NCBI GenBank assembly: GCA_958009085.1
Contig: OY253679.1
Coordinates: 868,001 to 932,000 of the forward strand
Direction: 5' to 3'
Source of the DNA: Protoeuglena noctilucae
Lineage: Eukaryota
Length of the DNA: 64,000 nt
Under the pieces are notes generated by a model that made no database searches, was not told the DNA's origin, and saw only the letters and a list, made by a program, of their open reading frames with translations. Shown here piece by piece: positions 20,131 to 59,427 of the stretch. Both the position numbers and the translations under genes were made by a program. Every line of letters begins with the position of its first letter. Within the stretch, counting starts at the first letter, position 1.

Positions 20131-23100
20131 ATGCGGAAGAAGATCGACTCGCGCATCCGCACGCTGGTGGATAACTGCGTGAAGACCGGCGAGCGGTCCA
20201 TGTTCGTCATTGTCGGGGACAAGGGGCGCGACCAGGTCGTCAACCTGCACTACATGCTCAGGTGCCCGCAGCGAGCGTTGTTACAACTCCGCCTTTATTA
20301 ATTATTCACCCCTGTGCGTGTCGGAGCGACCCGCGCGGCTTTCCGGACGCGCGGCACCTGTTTCCGCGCTCCGCAGCAAGATGCAGGTCAAGGCGCGGCC
20401 GAGCGTGCTGTGGTGCTACAAGAAGGACCTGTACATGTCATCGCACAAGAAGAAACGCATGCGGCAGATCAAGCAGATGGCGCAGCGGGGGCTCCTGGAC
20501 CCCGACCAGGAGGACCCCTTTTCGCTGTTCGTGGCCGCCACGAGCATCCGCTACTGCTTCTACAGCGAGACGCACCGCATTCTGGGCAACACGTTCGGCA
20601 TGTGCGTGCTGCAGGACTTCGAGGCGCTCACGCCCAACCTCCTCGCGAGGACGATCGAGGTGACGAGAGTGGCACAGGGTGGACGAACAGGGTGGCACGG
20701 TTTGGTTGGTTGTTAAGAGCAGCTTCTGTTCTAAGGGTCACTGCCACTCCTTGTGTGTCTCTCTGTTTGGCTCTTGCTGTCATCGCCACTGCACCCTTCT
20801 TATCTGCACCACCACTCACCTCCCACCACACCCACCTCCCCTCAACCCCCCACCACACCCACCTCAAGCCCCTCAACCCACCCACCCCCACCCCAACCCC
20901 CCGCAGACGGTGGAGGGCGGCGGCATGATCGTGCTCCTGCTCTCCACCCTCACCTCCCTGACGCAGCTCTACACGCTGTCGATGGACGTCCACGCCCGCC
21001 TCCGCACCGAGTCTCACCACGACGTCGTGGGCCGCTTCAACGAGCGAATGGTGCTTTCGTTGGCGAGCAACCCCAACTGTATGTTGGTCAACGACGAGCT
21101 CAACCTGCTCCCCACCTCCTCGCTCGTGCGGCACATCGCGCCGGTGCCGCCCGATTTCAAATCGGCATCGGATGATTCGAAAAGGGAGCTGGGGGAGCTG
21201 CACGCGGCGCTGCAGGACACGCAGCCTGCGGGGACGCTCGTGGGGGCGTGCAGGTGAGAGTTGGGTTGGGGTGGGGGTGTGGGTGTGGGTGTGGGGGTGG
21301 GGGTGGGTGTGGGTGGGTGTGGTGGTGTGGGTGTGGGTGGGGGTCCTGGGTAGTGGTGGTGGGTGGAGAGGGGTGCATTCAGGGCACTGCTATGCTTGCG
21401 ACCATCGCCTGCAACCATAGCTTTTCATAGTACTGAAAACCAATTCCCCCCACCCCCAATCATCAGGACGCTCGACCAGGCCCGCGCGGTGGTGACCTTC
21501 CTCGACGCCGCATCTGAGAAGACCCTTCGATCCACCGTGGCACTCACGGCGTCGCGAGGGAGGGGCAAGTCGGCGTCATTGGGGCTGGCGGTGGCGGGGG
21601 CGCTGGCCATGGGGTACGCCAACGTGTTTGTGACGGCGCCAAGCCCGGAGAACGTGCGCACGCTGGTGAGGGTACTGGTGGGGGAGAGGGGTGTCGGAGT
21701 AGAGGGAAGGTGCGGACGCTGGTGAGGGTATTTTTGGAGAGATCAGGGCGTGGTGTGTGGTGGAGTTCGAATATGTACGTTACAGGTAGTGTCACTTTTG
21801 ATTCATGTTCATTGCATCACAACACCACCTATCACACATCACACATCACCTGTCATACACCACACCCCCACCCTCGCCCTCTTCCCCTCCCCCCCCTCCC
21901 CCAGTTCGAGTTCGTCTTCAAGGGCCTGGACTCCCTGGGCTACAAAGAGCACCTCGACTACGAGCTGGTCGAGGCCACTATGCCGGACAACAGCAAGTGC
22001 GTGGTGCGCGCCAACGTCTTCCGCGACCACCGGCAGACGGTGCAGTTCGTGGACCCCCAGCACAGTGAGAGGCTCAGTCAGGCGGAGCTGCTGGTCATCG
22101 ATGAGGCGGCCGCCATTCCGCTGCCGGTGGTCAAGAGGCTGCTGGGGCCCTACCTGGTGTTCTTCGCCTCCACGGGTGAGCTGATTATCTGCATATATGT
22201 ACTGTGATTACAGCTGTTATTTACTGTGTTGGTGACACGCCTGGTGTTCTTCGCATCCACGGGTAAGGAGGCATGGCTGTGTAATTGGATGTGTGAATGG
22301 ATGGGCGTTGAGGAGCATGTGAGCGGGTGGGCCACCGCCCCCCACCTAACCGTCCCCACCCCACCCCTTCCCCACCCCCACTCACCCACCCCCCACTCTC
22401 CCCCACAGTCAACGGCTACGAGGGCACCGGCCGCTCCCTCTCCCTCAAACTCATCAGCCAACTGCGCGACCAATACAACGCCTCCCTCACTGCCACCACC
22501 ACTGCTACCGCCACCGCCACCCCCACCCGCACCTTCCGGGAGGTCAAGCTATCGACTCCCATCCGATACGCCCCGGGGGACCGGATCGAGTCCTGGCTGC
22601 ACGAGCTTTTGTGCCTCGACGCCGCCGACCGCGTTCCGCCCCTCCCAAAGGCGCTCCCCCACCCCAGCGACTGCGAGCTGTACTACGTGCAACGAGACAC
22701 GCTGTTCTCCTACCACCGAGCGTCCGAGGCCTTTCTGCAATCGGTCATGGCTCTGTATGTGGCCAGCCACTACAAGAACACGCCCAACGATTTGTTGTTG
22801 CTGGCAGACGCGCCCGCTCACCACCTTTTCGTGCTGCTGGGGCCGGTCGATGAGGCCAGCAACGCGCTGCCGGACGTGCTGTGCGTGGTGCAGGTGGGAT
22901 GGGATGAATGAGCAGGGGTGGGGTGTTTGTGTGCGATATGCAATGTGACGAGTCTTGTGCCATGCGCACTGCACTGCGATGTTTTGGGTTCGATCACATG
23001 AATCGCTCATCATCATCGTAAATGTTATCATCTGCAGGTGGCATTGGAGGGGGCGATATCGAGAAAGGCAGCAGCCGCGTCGCTGGCGGGGGGGAACATG

Positions 23101-26100
23101 CCGCAGGTGAGGGAGTTTGATAAAGATGGGAATCGGTGATGTTGGTATGGATGTTGACATTGTTACTAATATAATATAATATAATATAATATAATATAAT
23201 ATAATATAATATAATATAATATAATATAATATAATATATAATATAACATCAACCCTTCTTATCCCCCCATCTATTCTCAGGGCGACTTGATCCCCTGGAC
23301 CGTGGGGCAGCAGTTCCAGGACCCTGACTTCCCGGGCCTCTCTGGCGCCAGGATCGTGCGCATCGCCACCCACCCGGAGCTGACCCGGTCGGGGTACGGC
23401 TCGCGGGCCGTGGCGCAGCTGGCCGAGTACTTTCAGGGACACATGCAAGGGCTGGGGGAGGAGGAGGGGGATGAGGGGGAGGGGGATGGGGAGGTGAGGG
23501 GGGTGGTTTGGTTGTTGTGTGGGGGGGTGCTGTTGGGGGTGGCAGTGAGGGTGGCAGTGGGGGTGGAGAGGTGAGGTGGGTTTGTTGACTGGGGCAGATG
23601 CGGGGGCTGGGGGAGGAGGAGGGAGATGAGGAGGGGGATGAGGGGAGGTGAGGGGGGGTTGTTGTTGTTAGGGGTGGCGGTAAGGGTAGCAGTGGGGGTA
23701 GCAGTGGGGGTGGTAGTGAGGGTGGCAGTGGGGGTGGCAGTGAGATGTAAGGAAGCAATAACATTGACATTTGAGTGTAAACAGTCTTTTCTCTGTTATC
23801 ACCTCACAGGGATCCAAGGGCAGCGGGGCGAAGGCCAAGAGCGGTGGGAAAGCGAAGGGGAGCGGTGACAAGAGCGGGTCTAAGGATAAGGGCAGGAGTG
23901 GGGATAAGGATAAGGATAAGGATAAGGATAAGGATAAGGATAAGGATAAGGATAAGGAGTCGAGGCTTCTGACGGAGCAGATCCAGCCCAGGCAGGGGCT
24001 GCCGCCCCTGCTGACGCACCTGGCCGACAGGCGAGGATTACATGTGGGGGTGTGTATTGATGTGTGGTACTGAATCATGTCACGTCATGTAATTGTAACT
24101 GGTCATTTCAAGTGATTGTTACAATGATAATGGTGCTGCTTACGGCGCATTGAGACCCAAGCTACCCCACTGCCACCCTCCCTGCCACCCTCACCCCCAC
24201 CTTCACACCCCCACCCCACCCCACTTCCCCCCCAGGGCCCCCGAGCCCCTGCACTACGTGGGCACCTCCTTCGGCCTGACTCAGGACCTGTACGGTTTCT
24301 GGCGCAAGAACGACTACCTGCCAGTGTACCTGCGCCAGACGCCCAGCGACGTTACGGGGGAGCACACCGTCATCATGCTGCGCCCGCTGCAGGCAGACGA
24401 GGCGAGCGGGATGGGAATACTGTAGTTTTATGGTTATATTTAATAAGCAAAACTATGATATAACATTATATTTATCAGAAATTATACTTTGTTTATTATC
24501 AAAATGATACATATTATAATATTTTCTGTTATTATTTCCACTCACCCTCACACATCCTCTCCCCCAAACCGCAGATCCAGGACGCCTCGTGGGTCCATTC
24601 CTTCGTCTCGGATTTCCGCCGCCGATTCGTGTCGCTCCTGGGCGGCCCCTTCCGGTCCTTCTCGCCCGCCATGGCGCTCACCTTGCTCGACCCCAAGATC
24701 ACATTCGCGGAGAGGGAAGCCTCGGTGCATGGCAGCGGGGGTGGCGGTGGGGGTGGTGATAGGGGTGGCAGTGGGGGTGGTGACAAGGGTGGCGATAAGG
24801 GTGGCAGTGGGGGTAACAGTAACAGTAACGGTAATGTTAAAAGCATCGATGGTAATGCGGATGTCCCGAGGGTGGTGAGGGCGGACGGGGAGGTGGTGGA
24901 CGCGTATGACATCAAAAGGCTTCAAGCATATGCCAACTCGCTGGTCGACTACCACATGGTCATGGACCTCGTGCCCGCGGTGAGAATGATATTTATGATA
25001 AGTTATTAAGTTATTTTACATGATACTTCATTCTCCATGAGTTGCATGTGACACAACTAGCACAGGGGAACAAGTGGCATGCGGTATCACCGACATCGAC
25101 TAGTATTAGTAAATAGTACTAGTAAGTACGAGTCAGTATCATTAACTATTGCCGACATACCTCTCCCCTTCCGCAGCTGGCCAAGGCCTACTTCGCCCGT
25201 CAGATCCCCGTCACTCTCTCTTACGGCCAGGCTGCCATCCTGCTGTGTTTGGGACTGCAGATGGCGGACGTTTCAACGGTGGAGAGGGCGCTGTCGCTGC
25301 CGGCCAACCAGATTCTGGCGCTGTTCAACAAGGTGAGGGGGTGGTGGTGAATGGAAGATTGTGCTTCTATTCATGTCACATGGTATCTCATCTCCCCATC
25401 ACTCCCAGACCATCCGCCGCCTGTACCAGCACCTGCGTGCGTCCAAGGAGGCCGCGGTGGAGAGGTCATTGCCCGCCAGGCACAGCCATGCCCCGGAGAT
25501 GGGGGGGCCGATGGGGGACTTGGATGCCGAATTGGACGAGGGGGCCAAGGTGAGGGGATACGGGGAGTGAACTTGATCTTACAGTCTAAAATGTCGTAAA
25601 TGCACTGTTTGTGGTGTGTCGATGGCAAGGGGACCCAAGGGGACCCTGCTCTGTAGTACTACGCTTGCACTCACCCGCCGACTGTAACAGAACCCCGACC
25701 ATAGTTACGATCATTCGGCACGGCTGTCATCATTGGTTATAATTATCGTCATCACTATGTCAACCCCCACCATGCTTTGCTCCCCATCTCAGGCGGTTCG
25801 CGACGCCATGGCGTCCCAGCTGGACCCAGCTCTGCTGCAGCAGTATGCCATTCGGGGTGACGACGACGATTTGGCAGAGGCGGTGGGGGGGGCGTCGCTG
25901 GTGGCGGGCAAGGTGGTGTCGGTGAAAAGCATGGGGCGGGAGGGGGAGGGGGAGGGGGCGGCCATGCTGTACCAGGCGAGATGGGGTGTGGGGTAGGGGT
26001 GTGGAGTGTGATGTGTGTGAAGTGGGACGATGTGTTGGCGATGCTGTACCAGGCGAGTTGGGGTAGGGTACAGTGGGATTTGAAATGTGCTATGCGGAGT

Positions 26101-27714: not shown

Positions 27715-29818
27715 ATGGCGGCCGCGGCCCCGGGCCCAGGGGCCCAGCGCCTGAGCGAGGACAACGTGGCGAAAGCGTCGGGAATCGACACGGGAGCGGC
27801 GCGCGCCGTCGCCCGCATCAACACGAGCAATGCGGAGACCGAGACGGACACGGTTTCGGTCCTGGCGGAGGGCTCGGCCGGTCCCACGAAGTGCTGGGCT
27901 CCCCCGCAACCCGGGCGGCGCCGCAAGGCGAGTCTCTGCGCCGCGCGGGCCCCTCCGCTTGCCATGCGCGTGACCATACCTGCGAAATACGCAAAGCTGT
28001 ATCGCAGATTGAGTCTGCAGATGTCGACATGTGCTGATTCTTGCTCTGCATAGCGTGGCTGTGAGCAATCACCTTCATACTTACCAAATGGCATCTGTCT
28101 GCAGATCATCATCGACACGGATCCCGGCGTGGACGACGCTTTGACGATCTTCGCGGCGTTCAACAGTCCCGACGTGGAGGTGTTGGGCCTCACGACGCTC
28201 TTCGGCAACTGCCGCACGGGTGAGGGTCGGGGGTCAGGGTGGGGGTGAGGCTGAGGCTGAGAGTGAGGGTGAGGGTGAGGGTGGGGGTGGCAGTGGGGGT
28301 GAGGGTGGGTGAGGGTGAGCGTGGCAGTGGCAGTGAGGGTGGCAATGTGAGCAACGCTGTGTTACCCCACCCCACCCCATTCCTCGCCTCACACAGAGAC
28401 GTCGACGCGCAACGCTTTGCTTCTGTGCGAGATGGCGGGCCGGGCGGACGTACCCGTGGCAGAGGGGGCGTATGGCCCGCTGATGGGCGGCGTGGAGACG
28501 AGGGTGGCGGACTTTGTGCACGGGCGTGATGGGCTGGGGGACTGCGGGGTGTCGCGGGAGCCCGTTGCTGTGGCGCAGGAGTGCAGTGCGGCGCACTTCA
28601 TTTGCGAGGTGAGGGGTGGGGATGAATGGGGTGGGGTGACACGGCGCTACTCTCACTACCACTGTCACCCTCACTGCCACCCTTCACTGCCACTATCACT
28701 GTCACTCTCACCCCCACTGTCACTCTCACCCCCACTGCCACCCTCACCCTCACTGCCACTCTCACCCTCACTGCCACCCCCACCCCCACCCCCCACCCCC
28801 AGACCCTCACCCGCTACCCCGGGGAGGTGACCATCCTCGCGATCGCCAGCCTTACCAACGTGGCCCTCGCCATGGCCCTCGATCGCCACTTCAACGACAA
28901 GGTCGGGGAGGTGGTCGTGCTGGGAGGTGCTTATCGCGTGGCTGGTAACGTAACCCCTGCTGCCGAGGCTAACATATGGCACGATCCGGAGGCGGCAGAC
29001 GCGGTGTTCACGAACTGCACCAAGGTCCGGGCGCTGGGGCTTGACGTGACGCACCGTGTTCCGCTGACGGCCAAGCAGCTGGCGGGGCTGGAGGGGCAGG
29101 GGCGGTTCGGGACGCTGGTGGCGAGGGTGTCGCAGGTGAGGGTGGGGTGTGAGTGACTGATGGGGTGTGATGGGTGGGTAAGGGTGTGGTGTGGTGTGTG
29201 AGGTGTGCCTGGTGGGGCATGAGAGAGATGGTTCAGAGGTTGCTAGCAAATTCGGGTCTCGCATTACAGGTGCCCGATTTATCATCTCTCAACCGCAGCA
29301 CTATTCCACTACTTTGAACTGACAACACCGCTCTCATCCACATTCAATCACCCCACCTCCCCCCCGCAGTACTACCTCAACTTCCACCGGGAGAGCCAGG
29401 GCATTGACTATATTCATGTCCACGACCCCACGGCACTCGTGGCCATCTTACACCCCGAGTACTTTGCTTACGATCTCGGCCCTGTCGTGGTGTGCCTGCA
29501 AGGGCCCATGCGGGGCAAGACCATCCAGGTGACGGTTGTGGTGCGGGGTGGGAGTGAGAAGGGATGTGGAAGGAATGTAAGGTTGCGGATTGTGAGACTC
29601 TTTGCAGGGTGATAAGACAGGATGCATTTGTGCACATGGTGACGACACAGATGTCGTTCGCAATTACATGCTCCCCCTTTCCTTCTCCCCCGCAGGACCC
29701 CCGCACGCGCAAGTTCGGCTTCCCGCACGAGTGGAGCGCCCGCCCGCCGGTGCTGGTGGCCGCGGACGTCGACCCCCGCGCTGTGCAAGCCAAAGTCATC
29801 GACCTACTCACCGTGTAA
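27715..29818 (+). CDS. Inosine/uridine-preferring nucleoside hydrolase (uridine nucleosidase-like)
   Basis: IIIDTDPGVDDA; LGLTTLFGN; VADFVHGRDGLGD; SLTNVALA; VLGGAY...GNVTPAAEANIWHDPEAA; GLDVTH; VHDPTA. Stop TAA at 29816-29818. Confidence 0.92.
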
Positions 29819-45090: not shown

Positions 45091-45705
45091 CGGCGCCGGG
45101 AACCTGCTTTGTGGCATGACTATGCGTTTACACTGCATTTGCGGACGAGCGGGCGCCGCAGCGGGGCCCCTCGCGCGCGCGGGAGGGTCCTGTCGCTGGC
45201 ACGCCAGTGTGGTCCTGCGCGAGAGCGATCCGACGGCAGCTTTGCAGCTAGGGAGCGAGACGCGAGTGTATGGATGGTCTACGACAGCCCGCGATGCGCG
45301 TTGAATAGATTCGACTGTTGCGTGAAAGGGAACGGGCACTGCGTGCGCGTGGCAGGCCCGCACGGCGCGGAGCAAGAGGAATTATCGCAACCTGGTCGTC
45401 AGTAGCCTAACAATAGCGAACTGCCGAGCGTAGGCGAGGGCATCGCGCTCCCGGGCGAGCGCGGGCGGGACACGGGCTACACGCAGGCCTTCCTCAGGAA
45501 GGACGGGGGCGACATGGGGGACACCAAGGCGGAATACCAAAGTTAAGTACAGTCTTCGCTTGTTGGCTGCGCAGCGGTTAGCCATCGGGGCCCCAGCGCG
45601 CCGAGGGCGCCCGGCAAAGTCGCTCCCGCATTTTCACGCGCTCCTCGGGCCCGCAGGCTGCGCAAGGCGCATGGGAAGCTGGCGGAGTCGGTGGAGAGCG
45701 AGGGG

Positions 45706-47781
45706 ATGGTGGGTCGGAAGAACAGCATGACGATTGGGGAGAAGCTCACGCTGGTGCAGATGGCGGTGCTGTGGCAGGACAAGGAGATCCGCTTCGAGGC
45801 GGACAAGAGGAATTTAATCCTGGTTTCGGGGGAGGAGGTTCTCGTGCGAATATACAAGGCCGAGGACGTCAAGGGCGGGGAGGGGAAGGCGAGGGCGCGG
45901 GGTATTGAGGTTTGACACACTTTGCTGAGCTCGTTGTGCTTCTCTTGTTCGCAAGGATAAGCGCCCGTGCCCCTCGCAGGTCGGTTCGCTGTTCGTGACT
46001 TCGCTGCGCGTGTTGTGGCTCGCGCGCAAGGACCTGGAGCACAAGGCCTCGACGAACCTCAACCTGTCGGTCGGCCTGGGGAGCATTTTCGACCTGAACG
46101 TCGTCACGCGGGAGTCGCGGGTCACCGGGAACGTCGCTCGGCTCGAGGCAAGGCGCAGGCCGCGTCGCGGAGGCACAGCGCGGGGCGCAGAGCTGCGCAA
46201 ACACGCGACTCAGCTGCACAATTAACAAGCTTCGTTTTCGCGATCGCGCGCGCAGGTATTGAGCCGGTTCGAGAACAGCAAGTACCAGTTCATCTTCAAC
46301 TGCACGACGTCGCAGATGGGCAAGCTCGAGGCGACGAAAAAGGTCTGGAAGGCGTTCCAGGCGTCGCGGCTGTACCGGTGAGGCCGGATGGGGTGGTTGT
46401 TGCTGTTGCTGTGGCTGTGACTGCACCGGTGAGGCTGGGTTGCAACAGCTACTCCTGATGCTGTTGCTGATGCTGTACCAGCGAGGCTTGGTTGCTGTGT
46501 CAATGGTACGCAACCCCACCACCCACCACCGCCACCCTCAACCCCACCACCCCCCTCCCTCTCAGCGAGCTCAAGCTCCGGGGCTCCTTCATCCGCGACG
46601 GCGAGCTTATCTGCCTCCCCGGCGAGAGCCTCATCAACAAGATTCCCAACGTCATGAATCTGGCGAACAACCAGGGCAACATGGGCACTTTCTACCTCAC
46701 CAACGCCCGCCTCGTGTGGTGCGCCAACCACAACGAGTCGTTCAACGTCTCTATTCCCTTCACGCAAATACTGGCGGTCAAAGTGCGCGAGTCCAAGTTC
46801 GGGCCGGCACTGGTCGTGGAGACGAACCCCAAGGCGGGGGGGTACCTGCTGGGGTTCAACACCAACCCGGGGGAGAGGTGAGAGCGGATGGTTGTTGATG
46901 GAGTTCAATGCTTACTTAAACGAGCGGTGAGTGGAGAGGGTATCCGCTGGGACTGAACACACATCCAGTCATGATGTTTTCTTATTTAACTCACAGTAGC
47001 TTTTAACTCCATGCCAATTCACCCCCCCCAGACTGGAGGGGGTGTACCGCGAGGTGCGGACGGTGTGGAAGTCGGGCGTGTCGCGGCCGGACCTGGGGAC
47101 GGCCACGGTTCAGGACATCATTGCGGAAGGTACGTGCGTGCATTATCTTGAATCATTGGCTATAATGGGATAAAGGTTCGTGATAGTGGCTCAGTGGGTG
47201 TTTGTATGGGCGGGGTGGCAAAGGTGCAGGACATCATCGCGGGGGGTGGGAAGTTATTGTCATGGATTATTGGTTATAATGGCTTGTTTATTATGATGGG
47301 TGCGATAGTGACTTGGTGTGCGTTTGTATGGGAGGGGTGGCTATGGAGCTAAACGAATTAGTCAGCTAATCAATTCATTCCCAATTCCCGCAGAGGAGGA
47401 CCGGGAAGAGGCATTAAAGATGCTTGAGGACGTGCAAATCACCGACGCGCCCGAGGTGAGACGGGGAGTTGCATTCAGATTCAAATGCAAACTCACTCGC
47501 GTTCACTTATTGTCACTAGCACAGTACTATCACTCTCATTGTCGCTTTTACTCATAGACTCACTCGGCACCCTCTTATTGCCAGCCAAAGATGCCATATC
47601 TGTTAAGTGCCATATCTTATCCCTCACCCTTCCAACCCAGGCCCGCGACACGCTGCTCAGCTACATCCTGGAGCAGGGCAGCACCTCCAGCAAAGCCCCC
47701 GTCTATTCGGCCGAGTTGGGGGTGGCCATCGAGCCACTCAAGATGGACATGACCCTCGACGAGCTGTGGTCCGTGCTTTGA
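45706..47781 (+). CDS. BBS5: Bardet-Biedl syndrome 5 protein (BBSome)
   Basis: LWQDKEIRFE; EDVKGGEGK|VGSLFVTSLRVLW; LYRELKLRG; NLANNQGNMGTFYLTNARLVW; SKFGPALVVET...GGYLLGF; PVYSAELGVAIE...TLDELW. Confidence 0.93.
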
Positions 47782-47928: not shown

Positions 47929-50345
47929 TCACCCCTCCACCCCCCGCCCCCGCGACCCCCCCGCCCCTTGCAACCCCCCCATCTCCTCTTCCCAATCCCA
48001 ATCCGTAATCTCCCTCGGCAACTCCCGCAGAGCCGCCTCGCCCCCTCTCAGCACCGCCCCCGCCACCCACTCCCCCACCAATGCGTGGTACACCAGCCCT
48101 CGCGAACCCAAGCCACAGAACACCCAAACCTGCAGAGAATACGAGGAATATATCTTGCGTTTTTTCAAGTATACATGATCTATATGCACAGTATGCTTGA
48201 CCTCTTCTCCACCCCCCAATCGCCCACACCACTCCCCCCCTCACCTCCTGCCCATTTCCTCCACCCCCCAGCCGTCCCACCAGCGGCAAAGCGCCGTGGC
48301 GCGTGCGCCGGGGTAACCCCCGCACCCCCGCCCGCACCCACACCGCCCGCCACCCCACCGCCGGCCGCCACAGCCGCCCTGCCTCCCCCACAAGCCCCGC
48401 CACTGCTGTTGTTTCATCCAAGTGGTCTTGGTCTTTCAAACCCCTACTGCTGAATTTGAAATCCCTAGTACTCCCCGCACCCTCGTTCCGTGCCTCACCC
48501 CCACTGTCACCCCTAACCCCACCATCTCTCATCAACCTCGCAGCCCCTCTCGCACCCACCGCCCACCCGTGCCCGCCCCCCACCGCCGCGGCTGCGTCTC
48601 TAGCTGACAGTCCGTATGTCTTGGTCGCACCCACCACCACTCTCCTGTCGCCATGTGCGGCCAGGTAGGTCGGTCCCAAAAGGGAGGGCGCGTGGGGTGG
48701 GTAAGTGTTTGTGGCATCATAACTGGTGTTAGTGGTGTTGTTGATATCACCAGCCTTGGTATAATTCGTATGTGTATGAGCAGTATTGGTAGTTTCAGCA
48801 GTAGTAGTAGCATGACTATCGTTGTAAGTCAGATTCTGATGGTAGTCGTTGGGTTCGATTTCCGCCGTGAAGCCGTGGCACATTTCCATGGGCAGGCGAC
48901 CGCGGAGCTCAGCTGCGAAGGAAAGGGGTGAGGGTGAGGGTGTTGTTGTTACAAGAGCAAGGGTGAGGGAGGGAGAGGGGTGGGGTGTAAGTGGTGAGGA
49001 CAGCGAGTAATTAGGGGTAAGGAGTGATAGTGGTCATTATATTCCACACGTCACTCGTAGCACATTCCGCATCACACCGCATCACACATCACATCACGTT
49101 CCACATCACATCCCACAGCACGTGTCACCGATGTCCGCCGACGCGGCCCCCGCGGCCACCACCACCCTGTCGAATTCTGGCAGGTCCCTCGCGATGCCAG
49201 AAACGCGCCTGTCCCGGTCCAGCGCCACCTCAGATCCCCCCCTCTCCGCCTCTGCCTGACAGGCGGCCCACAGGCCACGCATGTAGGACTGGGGGTTCAA
49301 AACCACTCCATCGGAAATGAACAGAGCTCTGTGTGTAGTTGGGGAAAGGATGGTGATGATCATGGGGCTCACGATTGTAGTAAGTAGCAGTGGGGACAAC
49401 CCTTAGTACACAACCCCACCCCATCTTTCCCTGCTCTAGCTCCCCTCACCCACCACCCCTCACCCACCCCCACTCGCTCTCACCCCAGCTCTCCCTCCGG
49501 CATCACCACTCCCGGTAGCAGCGACACCGCTGTTTCGTTGTCCACCGCCCTCGCCCCTTCATCATTCACGTCCACCCCCGCCCCTGGGCCCCAGGCTTTG
49601 CGGAATGCCGCGGCCTGTTTCGCATCGCGCGCTGGCCTGTGATGATCGAGGAGTATGGCAAAGAATAGATAGTAGCACACACAGAGACGGTGGCAATGGC
49701 TGGGTATAGCAAATGCACAAGTGCACAGCTTGCCCGTGGTATGGCGTCACTTTCGCTGCCATCTTTCACAGCAACCCACCTCGCCTGAGGATTCCGGTGC
49801 CGCGGATGACGTCGGGCTCGTAACGCGCGGCTTTCTGCACCAATGCCAACGTGGCACGCACGCCCTCCCTCCCCCGCCACAGCTCCGTGCCTTTCGGCGA
49901 GTAGGGATGCAGGAGGCCCGCGGAGGCACCGGAAGCGCCGCCTCCGATGCCCGCCGCGTCCAACTGCGGGCGCGTCGAGGTCGCCAGGAGCTTGGAAGGC
50001 AATAACTGCAGCAGCCACCGCGGGGCTTGTTGCTGCGATATCATGCTGCTTTGTGGGTCGCGATGATAGGACATGTGTATCATAACTTCATCGGAACACG
50101 GCGTCGGCGTAGAGGCTCACCAAAGTAATAGAGATGCGGGTTTGCGAGGTGTGGGCCTTCTCGAGCAAGTGCCAGCACGTGGCGAGGCCGGCGAACCCCG
50201 CGCCCACGATCGCGCACGATAGACGATCCGAATGACAGCTGCGGACGCGGATATTGCCGATTCCGCGCGCGCGCCGGCCACGCACGGGCACGCTTGCATC
50301 GACGAGGCGGCTACTCACGCGACGCCGCGTCTGGCCTCCCTCCAT
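47929..50345 (-). CDS. FAD-dependent oxidoreductase (DAO/glycine oxidase-like)
   Basis: AIVGAGFAGLATCWHL (Rossmann GxGxxG); GIGGGASGASAGLLHPYSPKG; VVVAAGA; VVGATK; AGVRGLP...GALPLVG; VFCGLGSRGLVYHALVG. Confidence 0.85.
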
Positions 50346-55007: not shown

Positions 55008-58000
55008 ATGACGAAGCAGGGGGAGACGGGGGTGTACATCCCGAAGTTGCCGGGATGCGAGCCGTGGAACCCCATGGTGAGGCTCCCGGGGCGATTGGTT
55101 CCGCCCCCACCTGCTCAACGTGGTGCCTTGACAGTGCTTTAACTGCGGAGGGGCGCCGCGGTGTCCGGCAGCGCCAAAGGCGCTTGCTGCCCGCGGCCGC
55201 GGCACCAACATGTCTCCGCCCGGCCCGGCGCCGCTCCGCCGATGTCCTCCCGGACTCGAGCGCACAGCTTTTATTCTGCAACCAGCAAGCCATGCGCGGC
55301 CGCTGGTGGCCCTGGCGACGGCCCCGGGGCTCGCGGATGCCTCCCAAGGCCTGCCCCGGGTGCTTCCGCGCCATCCCCGCGCACCCGAGGCTCGCGCTCC
55401 TCCATCTCGCTGGGTCATCGGCAGAGATGGATGGCCATGTTGCTACTGGAGCCGTGTGGCACCGCCCGCGCGTCCCCCGCGGGGTCACTCGCCGGTTTCG
55501 CCCGCACGTCCATGCCTTTCTCCCGCTCGCGTCGTCCCCTGCTGCTCCCTTCCCCCGGCACCTTCCCTGCCGGTTTCTTTTTCGTCACTCGAGGATTCGC
55601 TGCAGGAATAAGCGTCGCAGCGTGCCCAGCGGCGCGCCCGGACAGGTCCTGCCAGCGGGCAGGCGAGCAACTCGCACCCCGGTCCCCTGCGCCCGCAGTC
55701 GGCGCAGAAGACGCGCACGACGCGGCTGACGTACCGCCACGGAGTCCCCCAGGTCGAGGACCCGATCCGGCCGAGCGTGGACGGGGAGGGCGCGGGCACG
55801 GGCGTGGACCTGACGCAGTCGCAGCTGCTCAAGCTGGGGGCCGTGAGCGACCTCACCGTCGCGCCCAAGGTCACGGACGTCACACACTGGGATTACTACG
55901 AGCCGCAGGTGCGATTTAAACGCCGCAGAGACCCCATCGACCACCTGCATGTCTTGACCACTACAAGCGCTCCCCAAGGCCCTCTCAAGCGCGTTTACTG
56001 ACCACCTGTACCCTTTCCGACCCATTTTTGCAGGTCCCGCAGTGGCTGGCGTTCGACCGGCGCGTGCTGCGCTTCTTCGCCTTTTTCAAGGAGCCCGTGG
56101 TCGAGTCGGCTTCCGAGAACTTCCGCGTCAGGCGCGTCACCATCTTCTACTATCTGGAGGACGGCACAGGCGAGGATGCAGATGTGTGATCTATGATACT
56201 TATAAGATGGTGGGATGGTGGGGTGCGGGACGAGCTGTGTGTCTGGTGGTAAGCATGGCCCTGAGGGACACGGTTCGAGCATCTGCGTTGCTGCAGCAAG
56301 GGACCCAACCGTTCCAGTTGTACTTTTAACTCTAGCGAGTACTGTATATGCCACCCTAACACCAATCGTAGTTACTTATATTCATATAATCTTCACACAC
56401 ACCCCCTGTCACCGCAGTGCACATGGGCGAGCCCCGCGAGGACAACTCGGGCATCCCCCAGGGGGTCTTCCTGCGCCGGCACATGGCGGAACTGGACTCG
56501 GGGGAGCCGCTGGGGATCGAACACCTGACCGTCGGGGCGGGTGAGCGTGCCAGATGGGTGTTCGTGGTTTGCGATGTTGTGGAGAGGTGTATCGGCGATG
56601 GTCACCCAGCCATCTCCGCTGCCCACACCCACGCACCGCATTCCTCACCCTCTCCTGTTTGCTCTCTTGACATAACCGCACCCAACCGCACCTGCCACAT
56701 CACCCACCTCACCAGTCAACCCCCCCCCCCCAACTCCCCTCTCCTATACCCCCCCAGACCTGTCTCTCTACGGCCGCACCTTCCACATCACCGGCTGCGA
56801 CGCCTTCACGCGCGAGTTCCTGACCGCCCAGGGCATCGCGGTGGCACCCGACGAGGCCGCGCCGGAGGACCCCCACAGGATGAAGGAGACGGCCAAGGTG
56901 GCCATGCGCAAGAGCCACCGGGCCATGGTGCGGTGAGTGACTAGTACACGTGTAGTTGTTAATATGTGAATGTATATGACCATGATGCGGTGAGATTGCA
57001 GTTGTGTGTGGTACTGGTGTGGGTGACTGAGCGAGCACTGCCCTCTTCTCATGCACCCCTACCGCAGCGCCAAGGCCCTGGAGCACCTGCGCAATCCCTC
57101 ACACACTCCCACCCATATCAATTCAAATCAATTCATATAGCCTCACCCATATCCCCCCCAGCGCCAAGGCCCTGGAGGACCTGCGCAAGTTCTTTGACTA
57201 CGACCGCAAGGTGCTTCGTTTCTTCGCCGTGTGGGACGACCGCAAGAACCTGTATGGGGACAACCTCGCGTACGTGCTGCACTACTACCTCAGCGACGAC
57301 ACGGTCGAGGTCAACGAGGTGCACGCACGCAACACGGGCAGGGACCCGTTCCCCAAGGTGAGAGGGGTGGTGTAAGTGTTGGTGTGGCTGGGTGTCAGTG
57401 ACTGAGTGAGTGTCAACGGGGTGCACGCCTGCCCAAGAACCGCCACCATCACTAGCGATGTCAGAAACACTTTTTAAAAGCCATAGTAGCTGCATGTAGA
57501 AACCGCCCCCACCCCCCCCTGCAGCTCCTGGCCCGTGGTCGCCTGCCCAAGAACCACCAGGACACGAGCGCCTTCCTCAGCCGCGCCATCCACTACTACG
57601 ACTGGTCGGACTTATCCATCGGGACCACCGTGAACGTGTGGGGCAGGCCACTCTTCCTGTACGACTGCGACGCGTTCACGAGGGCTTGGTACGTGCGGCA
57701 CGGGGTGCCCGAGGAGCAGCTGCGGGCGGCTAAGGTGGACGTGGAGGCGAAGCTGCAGGCGAGATTGGCAGAATGGGGAGATGTTGCGATATATGGGTGA
57801 ATTAGGACATGGTACAGGGTGAGGTGGTGAGAGGTGGGGGTGCCGGAACAGCTGAGACCGTCCACTGCTCTCCCACACACATATACATACACAATAGCCA
57901 CCATCCCACACCTCTGCATCCCCCAGATCCCCAAGGCCACGGTGGCCCCCAACTGGTCTCTGTTGATATTATTGCTCATAATACCATTCCCATTCATAAA

Positions 58001-59427
58001 TATCCCCCCACCCCCCCTCATTCCAGATCCCCAAGGCCACGGTGGCCCCCGACTGGTACGGCATTGGCAGCGAGCGTGATCAGATGCAGAGCGTGAACAG
58101 CCTCATCCCCAAGCCCCCCAAGTTCAATTGGGATCAGTTCATGGAGCACGGATCGAACGTGCTGAGGTTCGCGGCAAGGCTCGTCGAGGCCGAGGGGTGC
58201 CGGTGAGGGTTTGGGGTGGTGTGTCCGGTGGGGGTCACGGGGATGATGTGAGAGCGAGGGTGCTGGTGAACGAAATAGAGGTGAAAGAAATAGGACTAAG
58301 AAAGCGGGCGGCCTCGCCCAAAACCCTCCCTCACATCTCCAACCCCTCCCACTCACCACCTCACACCCACCCCTCTCACCTGACTCACCCATACCAACCC
58401 AACCCCGCTCTTAAACCCCCCCCAGCCTGCTCCCCGCCGACGACGTGCGCGAGTTCATCATCACGTACTTCTTGGCGGACGACACGATTCAGATCTACGA
58501 GCCCCCCATCCGCAACTCGGGCATCATCGGGGGGAAGTTCCTCGAGAGGACCACCGTCAAGAAGCCCAACAGCATCCACGTGGTGAGAAATTGTGTAAAG
58601 TACTACCATGTCCAACATACGTATCTCCACCGACCACTCACCCTTAGCCCTTTCAATCACCCTCATTGCTACCCCCACTGCCACCTCCACTCACCCCTCA
58701 CACATCACCACATCACACCCCGCCCACCCCCCCCAGGAGTACCGCGCGCGTGACCTGGCCATCGGGGGCCACCTCGTGACCCTCTCCCGCTGCTTCGAGC
58801 TTTACGACGCGGACGTCTTCACGTTCAAATTCATGGAGCAGAACTGCAGGGACTTCCCTCAGGCGGACGCAGCGAGGGTGCTGGGCAAGTGCCGGGCGGC
58901 GGTGGGGACGGCCGAGGTGAGGGGAGGTGGTGTGAGGGGGGGTGTTATAGAGAGAGAGTGGGGGTGGCTGAGGGGGTAGTGATGGTGAGGGGGTAGTGTG
59001 GGTGCTGCGCAGTCGGGTTGATAGAGAGGAGAGTGGGCGCGGTGTGTCTGGGCGTCGCGAAGGGATTGTTACTAGAGCGCTACTAGACAGCTTTTGTACC
59101 ACCTTATCATCCGACATCCATACCAATAACAATCGCCCCCACTCACCACTCCACTCACCACTCACCATACCACACCCACACCCACTCCCCACCCCCCCCT
59201 CATCCCCCCAGGCCCGTGAGGCGGTGCAGTCGGTGATCGCCGAGTCGACGGACGCCTCCACGGGCGCCGTGCCGCTGCCGGACGTGGCCGCGGCGTTCGC
59301 GGCGGCGGGGTGCGACCTCACGCCTCATGAGCTGGTCACGCTGGGGAGGAGGCTGGGGGACGAGCGGGGCAAGGCGCCCATCCCGGCCGCGAAGCTGCTG
59401 CAGGAGGTCGGGCTTAGCGGGAACTAG
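55008..59427 (+). CDS. RIB72/EFHC-family axonemal protein with three DM10 domains
   Basis: PKLPG N-terminus; WLAFDRRVLRFFAFFKE...YYLEDGT|VHMGEPREDNSGIPQGVFL; YDRKVLRFFAVWDD...YYLSDDTVEV...NTGRDPFP; FLADDTIQIYEPPIRNSGIIGGKFLER. Confidence 0.92.

Follow-up and report, generated by a model that had tools for sequence, protein, structure and literature searches.

Introduction

Inverted repeats in the two introns around an exon, such as pairs of Alu elements, favour back-splicing of that exon to a circular RNA. Introners, elements that generate introns, include the cases of Micromonas and Aureococcus. G-triplets are said, after McCullough and Berget, to be intronic splicing enhancers of GC-rich short introns. 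Here, we consider these systems together with two neighbouring introns in 64,000 nucleotides of the genome of Protoeuglena noctilucae (GenBank assembly GCA_958009085.1, contig OY253679.1, positions 868,001 to 932,000 of the forward strand), a stretch that we call the window and in which all coordinates below are counted. The two introns, A (28220–28396, 177 nt) and B (28609–28802, 194 nt), both of the GT..AG type, belong to an inosine-uridine-preferring nucleoside hydrolase (IUNH) gene on the plus strand and flank its third exon (28397–28608, 212 nt). An earlier reading made from the letters of the window, hereafter the sequence-only reading, had taken A and B for inverted copies of each other, so that one sequence would be spliced in both orientations, and had explained them either by an Introner-like element or by a local inverted duplication or conversion.

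Repeats that are tied to intron ends or splice sites have been described in several animal systems. In zebrafish, complementary AC and GT repeats bridge introns, and in the same report GGG/CCC pairs were noted for 16% of the human introns that are structured (Lin et al., 2016, Genome Res 26:12). Murray et al. deal with splicing enhancers of the G-triplet and C-rich kinds that lie within short, GC-rich introns. In intron 7 of the human F7 gene, the first unit of a minisatellite is reported to span the exon-intron boundary, each unit containing a pseudo-donor (PLoS Genet 2:e138). Introners are recognized, in a published survey, by similarity from boundary to boundary in either orientation and by families of at least four introns, and low-complexity families are filtered out since microsatellite expansion can mimic Introners (Gozashti et al., 2022, PNAS 119:e2209766119). 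The literature searched contained no algal report of intron arrays that are G-rich at the 5′ side and C-rich at the 3′ side, Emiliania intron repeats included.

We consider it likely, on balance, that A and B are ordinary spliceosomal introns standing at the extremes of an architecture common among the introns of this genome, in which complementary arrays are anchored at the two splice sites. The array architecture probably extends beyond the window, genome-wide. A and B look like inverted copies because introns start with G-rich repeats and end with complementary C-rich repeats. A bidirectionally spliced element would have borne on the question of intron gain, but the evidence here gives no support for one. 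What is found instead in this GC-rich marine alga is a class of compositionally two-faced introns, whose starts are made of tandem donor consensus and whose ends are made of its exact complement, and intron-similarity screens in such genomes will yield false "inverted copies."

Complementary Arrays at the Two Ends of Introns

The splice sites of A and B are known from RNA. Metatranscriptome contigs yield a predicted protein of 384 aa, P0121, which has 100% identity to the product obtained by conceptually splicing 27715–27927, 28105–28219, 28397–28608, 28803–29135, 29370–29528, and 29696–29815, and this identity runs across the junctions closing A (...GNCRT/ETSTRN...) and B (...HFICE/TLTRYPGEV). 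The boundaries that the sequence-only reading had assigned to intron A, the 212-nt exon and intron B are thus exact, and the sequences it quoted are present where it had placed them. In one RNA contig of a second study, 28608 and 28816 are thirteen letters apart, a spacing that fits a junction between 28608 and 28803 because 28803–28815 is masked as a repeat. The junction of exons 1 and 2 is also present in RNA contigs of the second study.

A null set of introns was taken from the same window. Genes were mapped via Pfam on open frames with a high GC content at third codon positions, and then by a custom splice-aware gene finder, which gave 78 introns within Pfam-stranded genes and 45 after stricter filters. 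Two array-rich introns, 7416–7642 and 23491–23810, were added by hand, and the resulting 47 introns come from 15 genes, with both strands represented. P0121 agrees exactly with each of the four IUNH introns that the set contains, and the boundaries in the NAT10 gene agree with tblastn; the gene finder was off by 12 nt at the donor of IUNH intron 5, which lies outside the filtered set.

The introns of this set have a clear polarity. Over their first 60 nt, 39 of the 45 filtered introns have a positive GC skew, and over their last 60 nt, 42 have a negative one. Since the acceptor score of the gene finder prefers pyrimidines in the last 20 nt, the 3′ side was also measured at −60 to −24, where both skew signs are found in 29 of the 38 introns of at least 130 nt. 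Counted over the 5′ and 3′ halves of the 47 introns, GGG occurs 313 vs. 74 times, GGGG 122 vs. 26, and GTGAGG 24 vs. 8, and the complementary words show the reverse (CCC, 38 vs. 428; CCCC, 6 vs. 238; CCTCAC, 3 vs. 19). This k-mer polarity persists without A and B. Tandem Repeats Finder (TRF) detects arrays in 22 of the 47 introns, and its G-type segments lie closer to the 5′ splice site in 16 of 19 cases and its C-type segments closer to the 3′ splice site in 10 of 10. The polarity follows the strand of the gene, minus-strand genes included. The 5′ parts of the introns contain G-rich hexamer or dodecamer arrays of units resembling a 5′ splice site (GTGAGG, GTGGGG, GTGGCA), often starting from the donor itself, and the 3′ parts contain the complementary C-rich units (CCTCAC, CCCCAC, TGCCAC), which reach the acceptor without AG. 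As introns here tend to be G-rich at the start and C-rich at the end, an intron taken in reverse complement generally resembles another. This general polarity had been overlooked in the sequence-only reading, whose exon-looping geometry is supported in silico, whose Introner is not supported, and whose inverted duplication has weak support, as described below.

A and B are the two most array-dominated of the 47 introns. A is nearly all 5′-type array with a short C tail, and B has a short G head followed by nearly all 3′-type array. The G-type array of A (28218–28344; TRF 28218–28323 and 28262–28344), composed of GTGAGG, GTGGGG, GCTGAG, and GTGGCA with periods of 6 and 12, begins at the 5′ splice site; 71% of the intron is tandem array (TRF-masked fraction 0.71), and the intron has 10 overlapping G-quadruplex motif starts. 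A switch from G-type to C-type sequence (GTGGCAATGTGAGCAACGCTGTGTTACCCCACCCCA) occurs in a core at 28340–28374, the location expected of a branch point. The array is followed by a C-rich tail of 52 nt (28345–28396) that includes (CCCCA)3 as well as CCTCGCCTCAC and closes with ACAG at the 3′ splice site; in A, the AG-free zone measures 43 nt. B begins with a G-rich head of 40 nt (28609–28648, GTGAGGGGTGGGGATGAATGGGGTGGGGTGACACGGCGCT), its TRF-unmasked part, and proceeds to a C-type array (28649–28801; TRF 28649–28789, 28660–28791, and 28709–28801) composed of CCTCAC, CCCCAC, TGCCAC, and TGTCAC with periods of 18, 12, and 6. Tandem array makes up 79% of B and extends to the 3′ splice site. The AG-free zone of B, 187 nt, is the longest of the 47 introns (median 48), and with no AG over that distance before the acceptor its branch point may be unusually far upstream. 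Because each array type is the reverse complement of the other, A resembles B when it is read backwards.

How could such introns have arisen? The arrays may have grown in place via replication slippage from motifs proximal to the splice sites, with their orientation set by splicing constraints. G-runs or donor-like units after the 5′ splice site would be tolerated or even helpful, akin to G-triplet enhancers, and the AG-free C-rich tracts presumably needed before the 3′ splice site would be provided by the C arrays. With in-place slippage and an orientation fixed by splicing, the resemblance between A and B would require no copying from intron to intron. Pairing of the excess G-array of A with the excess C-array of B, predicted over about 150 bp and looping out exon 3, would be a by-product.

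This architecture can be compared with the systems mentioned above. As with the zebrafish (AC)m-(GT)n introns, complementary repeats occupy opposite intron ends, as seen from the k-mer polarity of the 47 introns, and predicted folds bridge the ends, with a median of 28 pairs vs. 12.6 in shuffled sequences and with at least 10 pairs in 38 of the 47. Unlike the zebrafish introns, single introns here do not exceed shuffles in stability (median z = −0.47; 10 of 47 below −2), and within an intron the G-richness of the 5′ side does not vary with the C-richness of the 3′ side (Spearman −0.01 between 5′ and 3′ skew, n = 38). The complementarity between tail and head has a median of 15 within the same intron vs. 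14 between different introns. A further difference is that A and B are long partners across an exon, an arrangement reported not to be enriched in zebrafish (Lin et al., 2016). As with the G- and C-run enhancers, G-runs follow the 5′ splice site and C-runs precede the 3′ splice site, both kinds of run being complementary and able to pair; unlike them, the runs form long tandem hexamer or dodecamer arrays of up to 125–153 nt that abut the splice sites in an algal host, with units that reproduce the GTGAGG donor consensus or exactly complement it, and the likeness is one of sequence only. As reported for F7, the array starts at a used 5′ splice site and donor-like units are repeated downstream, the first being the one used. 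Unlike the 37-bp unit at the single F7 locus, the units here are of 6 or 12 nt, are found in many genes and have a complementary counterpart at the 3′ side.

The Same Units Elsewhere in the Window and, Apparently, the Genome

The units of A and B are not confined to the IUNH gene. The 12-mer GTGAGGGTGAGG, allowing at most one mismatch, occurs 30 times in the window vs. 0.61 expected from dinucleotide shuffles, and arrays built from the dodecamer GGGTGGCAGTGA or from its complement lie at 22488, 23537, 23671, 24170, 24737, and 58658. A comparator intron on the plus strand at 7416–7642, in a tryptophan-synthase-beta-like (TrpB) gene, has a 5′ (GTGAGG)n array and a C-rich 3′ end. B matches the array of the TrpB gene, 21 kb away, with 78.2% identity over 133 nt (101 bits), and matches A with 77.7% over 130 nt (98.7 bits). 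The summed contig depth in one DNA run of the organism rises from about 90 elsewhere to 6200–7300 over the NAT10 arrays at 23002–24335, and many contigs of the run link these arrays to other places. From this rise and from these joining contigs, the GGGTGGCAGTGA-type minisatellite seems to be highly repeated across the genome.

One array lies within the coding stretch of NAT10, where a G-type array (GGGGGTGGCGAT and similar units) runs in frame at 24730–24826. This stretch represents a Gly-rich insertion in the coding sequence or, alternatively, an intron that was not recognised as such; the gene finder called 24727–24870 an intron, with a weak donor.

Resemblance Between Introns A and B

The two neighbouring introns do mirror each other. 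The region 28100–28900 contains 102 inverted-repeat pairs, the longest of 90 nt with 77% complementarity and another of 36 nt with 92%. The reverse complement of A aligns with B with a local score of 108–116, vs. 21–26 in the direct orientation; positions 1–174 of A align in the opposite orientation with 28796–28603 at 71.6% identity over 194 columns, and a global alignment of this kind spans both introns with 71.1% identity. The inverted-repeat pairs and the alignment bear out the mirroring of GTGAGG/GTGGCA in A by CCTCAC/TGCCAC in B that had been noticed in the sequence-only reading. The core similarity claimed there also stands: the reverse complement of 28340–28374 matches 28627–28661, the corresponding core in B, at 28 of 35 positions without a gap, and six of the seven mismatches are transitions and one is a transversion.

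Compared with dinucleotide shuffles the match exceeds chance, and compared with the introns of this genome it gives a mixed picture. Does this resemblance go beyond what the general polarity provides? If it did, a local inverted duplication, a template switch or gene conversion between the arrays of A and B would be conceivable, in which the repeat block of one intron, together with the switch region, was transferred in inverted orientation to the neighbouring intron about 400 bp away, both arrays diverging afterwards by slippage. We regard such an event, in outline as in this detail, as possible but doubtful. In its favour, and against regarding A and B simply as the extremes of a common architecture, several observations can be cited. 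The local reverse-complement score of A and B (108) is the first of 990 pairs, the next being 67, and their global identity (71.1%) is the first of 509, the next being 64.7% for the TrpB intron vs. B. The core is in the top 1% of 2162 tail/head pairs, ranking 16–21 under three scoring schemes, and its mismatches are transitions in six of seven cases. When the order of the units is shuffled, the observed identity is reached in 2 of 300 trials with 6-mer blocks, 4–6 of 300 with 12-mer blocks and 8–17 of 300 with 18-mer blocks. In addition, the two most array-dominated of the 47 introns adjoin, although adjacent pairs number only 33 of 1081, so that the adjacency of the two largest arrays appears to be an arrangement open to about 3% of pairs. 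It also counts against the ordinary-intron reading that slippage and splicing constraint as causes are what we infer, that the intron set comes from a simple gene finder of our own whose acceptor score prefers pyrimidines in the last 20 nt, and that the data are those of a single 64-kb window rather than of a genome.

Against a duplication, the TrpB array 21 kb away resembles B as closely as A does. Even if the unit order is shuffled within either array, 68% end-to-end identity is retained, so that the order is worth about 3 points. A and B share 40 10-mers, 37 11-mers, and 31 12-mers, of which only 1, 3, and 4, respectively, are private to the pair, and B has more private k-mers in common with an array at 48440–48640 than with A. 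Their higher-order periods are different, 6 and 12 in A vs. 18 and 12 in B. Neighbouring introns in general are not more similar in reverse complement than others (median 18 vs. 17, p = 0.08; 0.13 without A and B). In the TRF-masked comparison A and B do rank second of 1081 pairs, in favour of a duplication, but the sole alignment that remains is a G-tract of 21 nt, and A vs. the TrpB-gene stretch 6508–6787 scores higher, via (CCCCA)n. Thus, the inverted duplication or conversion proposed in that reading has on its side the top-ranked similarity and the transitions, and has against it the equal match in TrpB and the scarcity of private k-mers, and the evidence for a specific kinship of A and B is weak.

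We also considered a duplication extending into the exons, as CGGGTGAGGGTC at 28217 mirrors GACCCTCACCCG at 28802. The first 11 nt of exon 4, ACCCTCACCCG, are like an array unit and yet encode T-L-T-R, an ancestral sequence that aligns without an indel with T-V-R/N-x in eleven homologues. Because the exon-4 part is conserved coding sequence without an indel, this extension was rejected, and the match of the outer ends that reaches exon 4 does not speak for a duplication.

A Predicted Duplex Around Exon 3

The ordinary-intron reading leaves room for an unusual RNA structure. In the predicted fold of 28220–28802, A and B are paired end to end, with a minimum free energy of −383.4 kcal/mol vs. 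−287.1 ± 7.5 kcal/mol for 100 shuffles (z = −12.8). The cross-exon gain over the parts folded alone (ΔΔG −172.8 kcal/mol, 147 pairs) is the first among 57 neighbouring intron pairs, the runners-up being two NAT10 pairs with −108.5 and −94.7 kcal/mol. Folded singly, A and B are not unusually stable (z = −1.35 and −0.47, respectively). Pairing across the exon is predicted because the G-array of A exceeds its own C tail and the reverse is true for B. The exon-looping geometry that the sequence-only reading had pointed out is therefore supported in silico by the z-score and by the rank of the pair, in a fold that is thermodynamic and takes no account of co-transcriptional splicing or of G-quadruplex formation by A. 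As in exons that form circular RNAs, exon 3 is flanked by reverse-complementary intron sequences predicted to join its splice sites; unlike in Alu-flanked exons, the repeats are low-complexity arrays rather than dispersed transposons.

Might this complementarity have been selected? The duplex would then regulate exon 3, either through skipping, which would shift the frame because the exon has 212 nt, or through a circle of 212 nt. The depth of the joint fold with its end-to-end pairing of A and B, the first rank of its cross-exon gain and the unremarkable stability of A and B alone would all be expected in that case. However, any G-array pairs with any C-array, and ΔΔG is below −60 kcal/mol in seven other neighbouring pairs of the 57; the pairing of A with B may thus be a by-product. 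The prediction is, moreover, purely thermodynamic, leaving aside both co-transcriptional splicing and the G-quadruplexes of A, and normally spliced mRNA alone is seen, in P0121 and among the joints listed for the four runs examined, which are all assembled contigs and bear on neither back-splices, rare isoforms nor levels. Taking these points together, we consider selection for the duplex unlikely. In NAT10, two exons have complementary arrays in the flanking introns, 20660–20906 with 21254–21466 (−108.5 kcal/mol, 106 pairs) and 23648–23823 with 24031–24235 (−94.7 kcal/mol, 65 pairs).

A more far-reaching suggestion, which we consider quite unlikely, is that complementary hexamer arrays anchored at splice sites would constitute an RNA-structure code, with A and B serving as a switch for a circular exon-3 RNA or a frameshifting skip. 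If this were true, the pairing of splice sites would be set by arrays that pair inside one intron or from intron to intron, and a skip would lower the output of the enzyme; the system, built from tandem copies of the 5′ splice site, would parallel in an alga both the AC/GT introns of zebrafish and the circular RNAs driven by Alu elements. Where long G and C arrays lie in neighbouring introns, duplexes that loop out the exon are predicted to be very stable, which makes the IUNH gene and the two NAT10 exons candidate places for circular RNAs or structure-dependent splicing in algae.

Introner-Like Elements

The sequence-only reading had also proposed an Introner-like origin, that is, a mobile element inserting in either orientation and carrying or recruiting splice sites that created both A and B. 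The geometry is suggestive. Like Introners, A and B are boundary-to-boundary similar introns in opposite orientation in a marine alga. At both splice sites their similarity stops only a few bases short, a geometry accepted by Gozashti et al. (2022), and their inverted ends, GTGAGG...CCTCAC, resemble an inverted terminal pair, but these ends are identical to generic array units. Unlike Introners, A and B are of low complexity, with TRF arrays covering 71 and 79% of them, and the published pipeline discards such families as possible microsatellite expansion (Gozashti et al., 2022). No multi-copy family of unique sequence was seen in the window: none of the other 45 introns has more than 65% end-to-end identity with A or B, no family of at least four introns in unrelated genes was found among the 47, and after masking these have no common unique core, the top masked scores being due to (CCCCA)n or G-tracts. 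Neither a target-site duplication nor a coding indel is seen; no residues are duplicated or inserted at either site relative to 11 homologues, and an alignment of 12 homologues, bacterial and other, contains no duplicated flank or gain of residues at the sites of A and B. Furthermore, the G- and C-type units are bound to their position within the introns of every gene examined, and such an orientation is expected from selection on splicing signals and not from random two-way insertion. An Introner is therefore not supported, and we consider it very unlikely that a mobile element produced A and B.

The IUNH Gene and Its Genomic Context

The IUNH gene occupies 27715–29818 on the plus strand and has six exons, of which exon 2 (E = 3.2e-11) and exon 4 (E = 1.9e-31) match Pfam PF01156 (IU_nuc_hydro). 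Exon 1 (27715–27927), with ATG at 27715, encodes residues 1–71 of P0121 with 100% identity. Intron 1 (27928–28104; GCGAGT...TGCAG) is of the GC..AG type; P0121 joins 27927 to 28105, and an RNA contig joins 27925 to 28103 with an ambiguity of 2 nt (AG). Exon 2 (28105–28219) encodes residues 72–109, including the DTDPGVDD motif of IU_nuc_hydro, and exon 3, which runs from phase 1 to phase 0, encodes residues 110–180. Exon 4 (28803–29135), exon 5 (29370–29528), and exon 6 (29696–29818, with the stop codon TAA at 29816–29818) are likewise placed by P0121, as are intron 4 (29136–29369) and intron 5 (29529–29695; GTGACG...CCGCAG). Intron 4 has a G/T-rich start (GTGAGGGTGGGGTGTGAG...) and a C-rich end, the GC skew at its 5′ and 3′ ends being +0.94 and −0.74, respectively.

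Apart from itself and one relative with 75% identity, exon 4 has its best matches, at about 45–58%, in unnamed or bacterial sequences (Rhizobium and others). The full-length IUNH protein is 38–46% identical alike to bacterial sequences and to two longer, probably eukaryotic ones, and at this equal distance a horizontal transfer of the gene, which had been considered, was set aside. In a metagenome scan with exon 4 (596 pattern matches, 258 relatives), no close relative was seen among the 80 loci retained, all of which have at most 54% identity. For a NAT10 exon, the best named matches are green algae and plants, at 69–78%, with no haptophyte among the best 120, and a haptophyte affinity, suspected at first from the GC-AG introns, was given up on this ground.

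GC..AG introns usually account for about 1% of introns in plants and animals. In the window, GC donors are found in 18 of the 45 filtered predicted introns (about 40%), for example 27928–28104, 24031–24235, and 24402–24574, and for the first of these both P0121 and an RNA contig provide confirmation. This frequency is far above the usual one and resembles reports of GC-AG introns at 56% in Emiliania and at about 14–17% in pelagophytes.

The GC content of the window is 56–73% per 2 kb, and about half of its sampled words are contained in marine metatranscriptomes, which equals the exon share. Rfam and tRNA scans of the window found nothing. The NAT10 introns, in a region otherwise of 65% GC, contain AT-rich islands, one at 23167–23238 made of (TAATA)14.4 at 100% identity and another a stretch of about 120 nt at 24420–24540. 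A perfect (GGATAA)9.5 repeat in a NAT10 exon (23902–23958) would encode a Lys-Asp repeat. At 4135–4409, a unit of 132 nt is repeated 2.1 times with 100% identity, through a tandem duplication of very recent date or else an artefact of the assembly, and 12745–12944 is an assembly gap of 200 N. Finally, BBS5 and DM10-domain (EFHC-like) genes are present at 45547–47000 and 55612–58750, respectively, which suggests a flagellate life stage.

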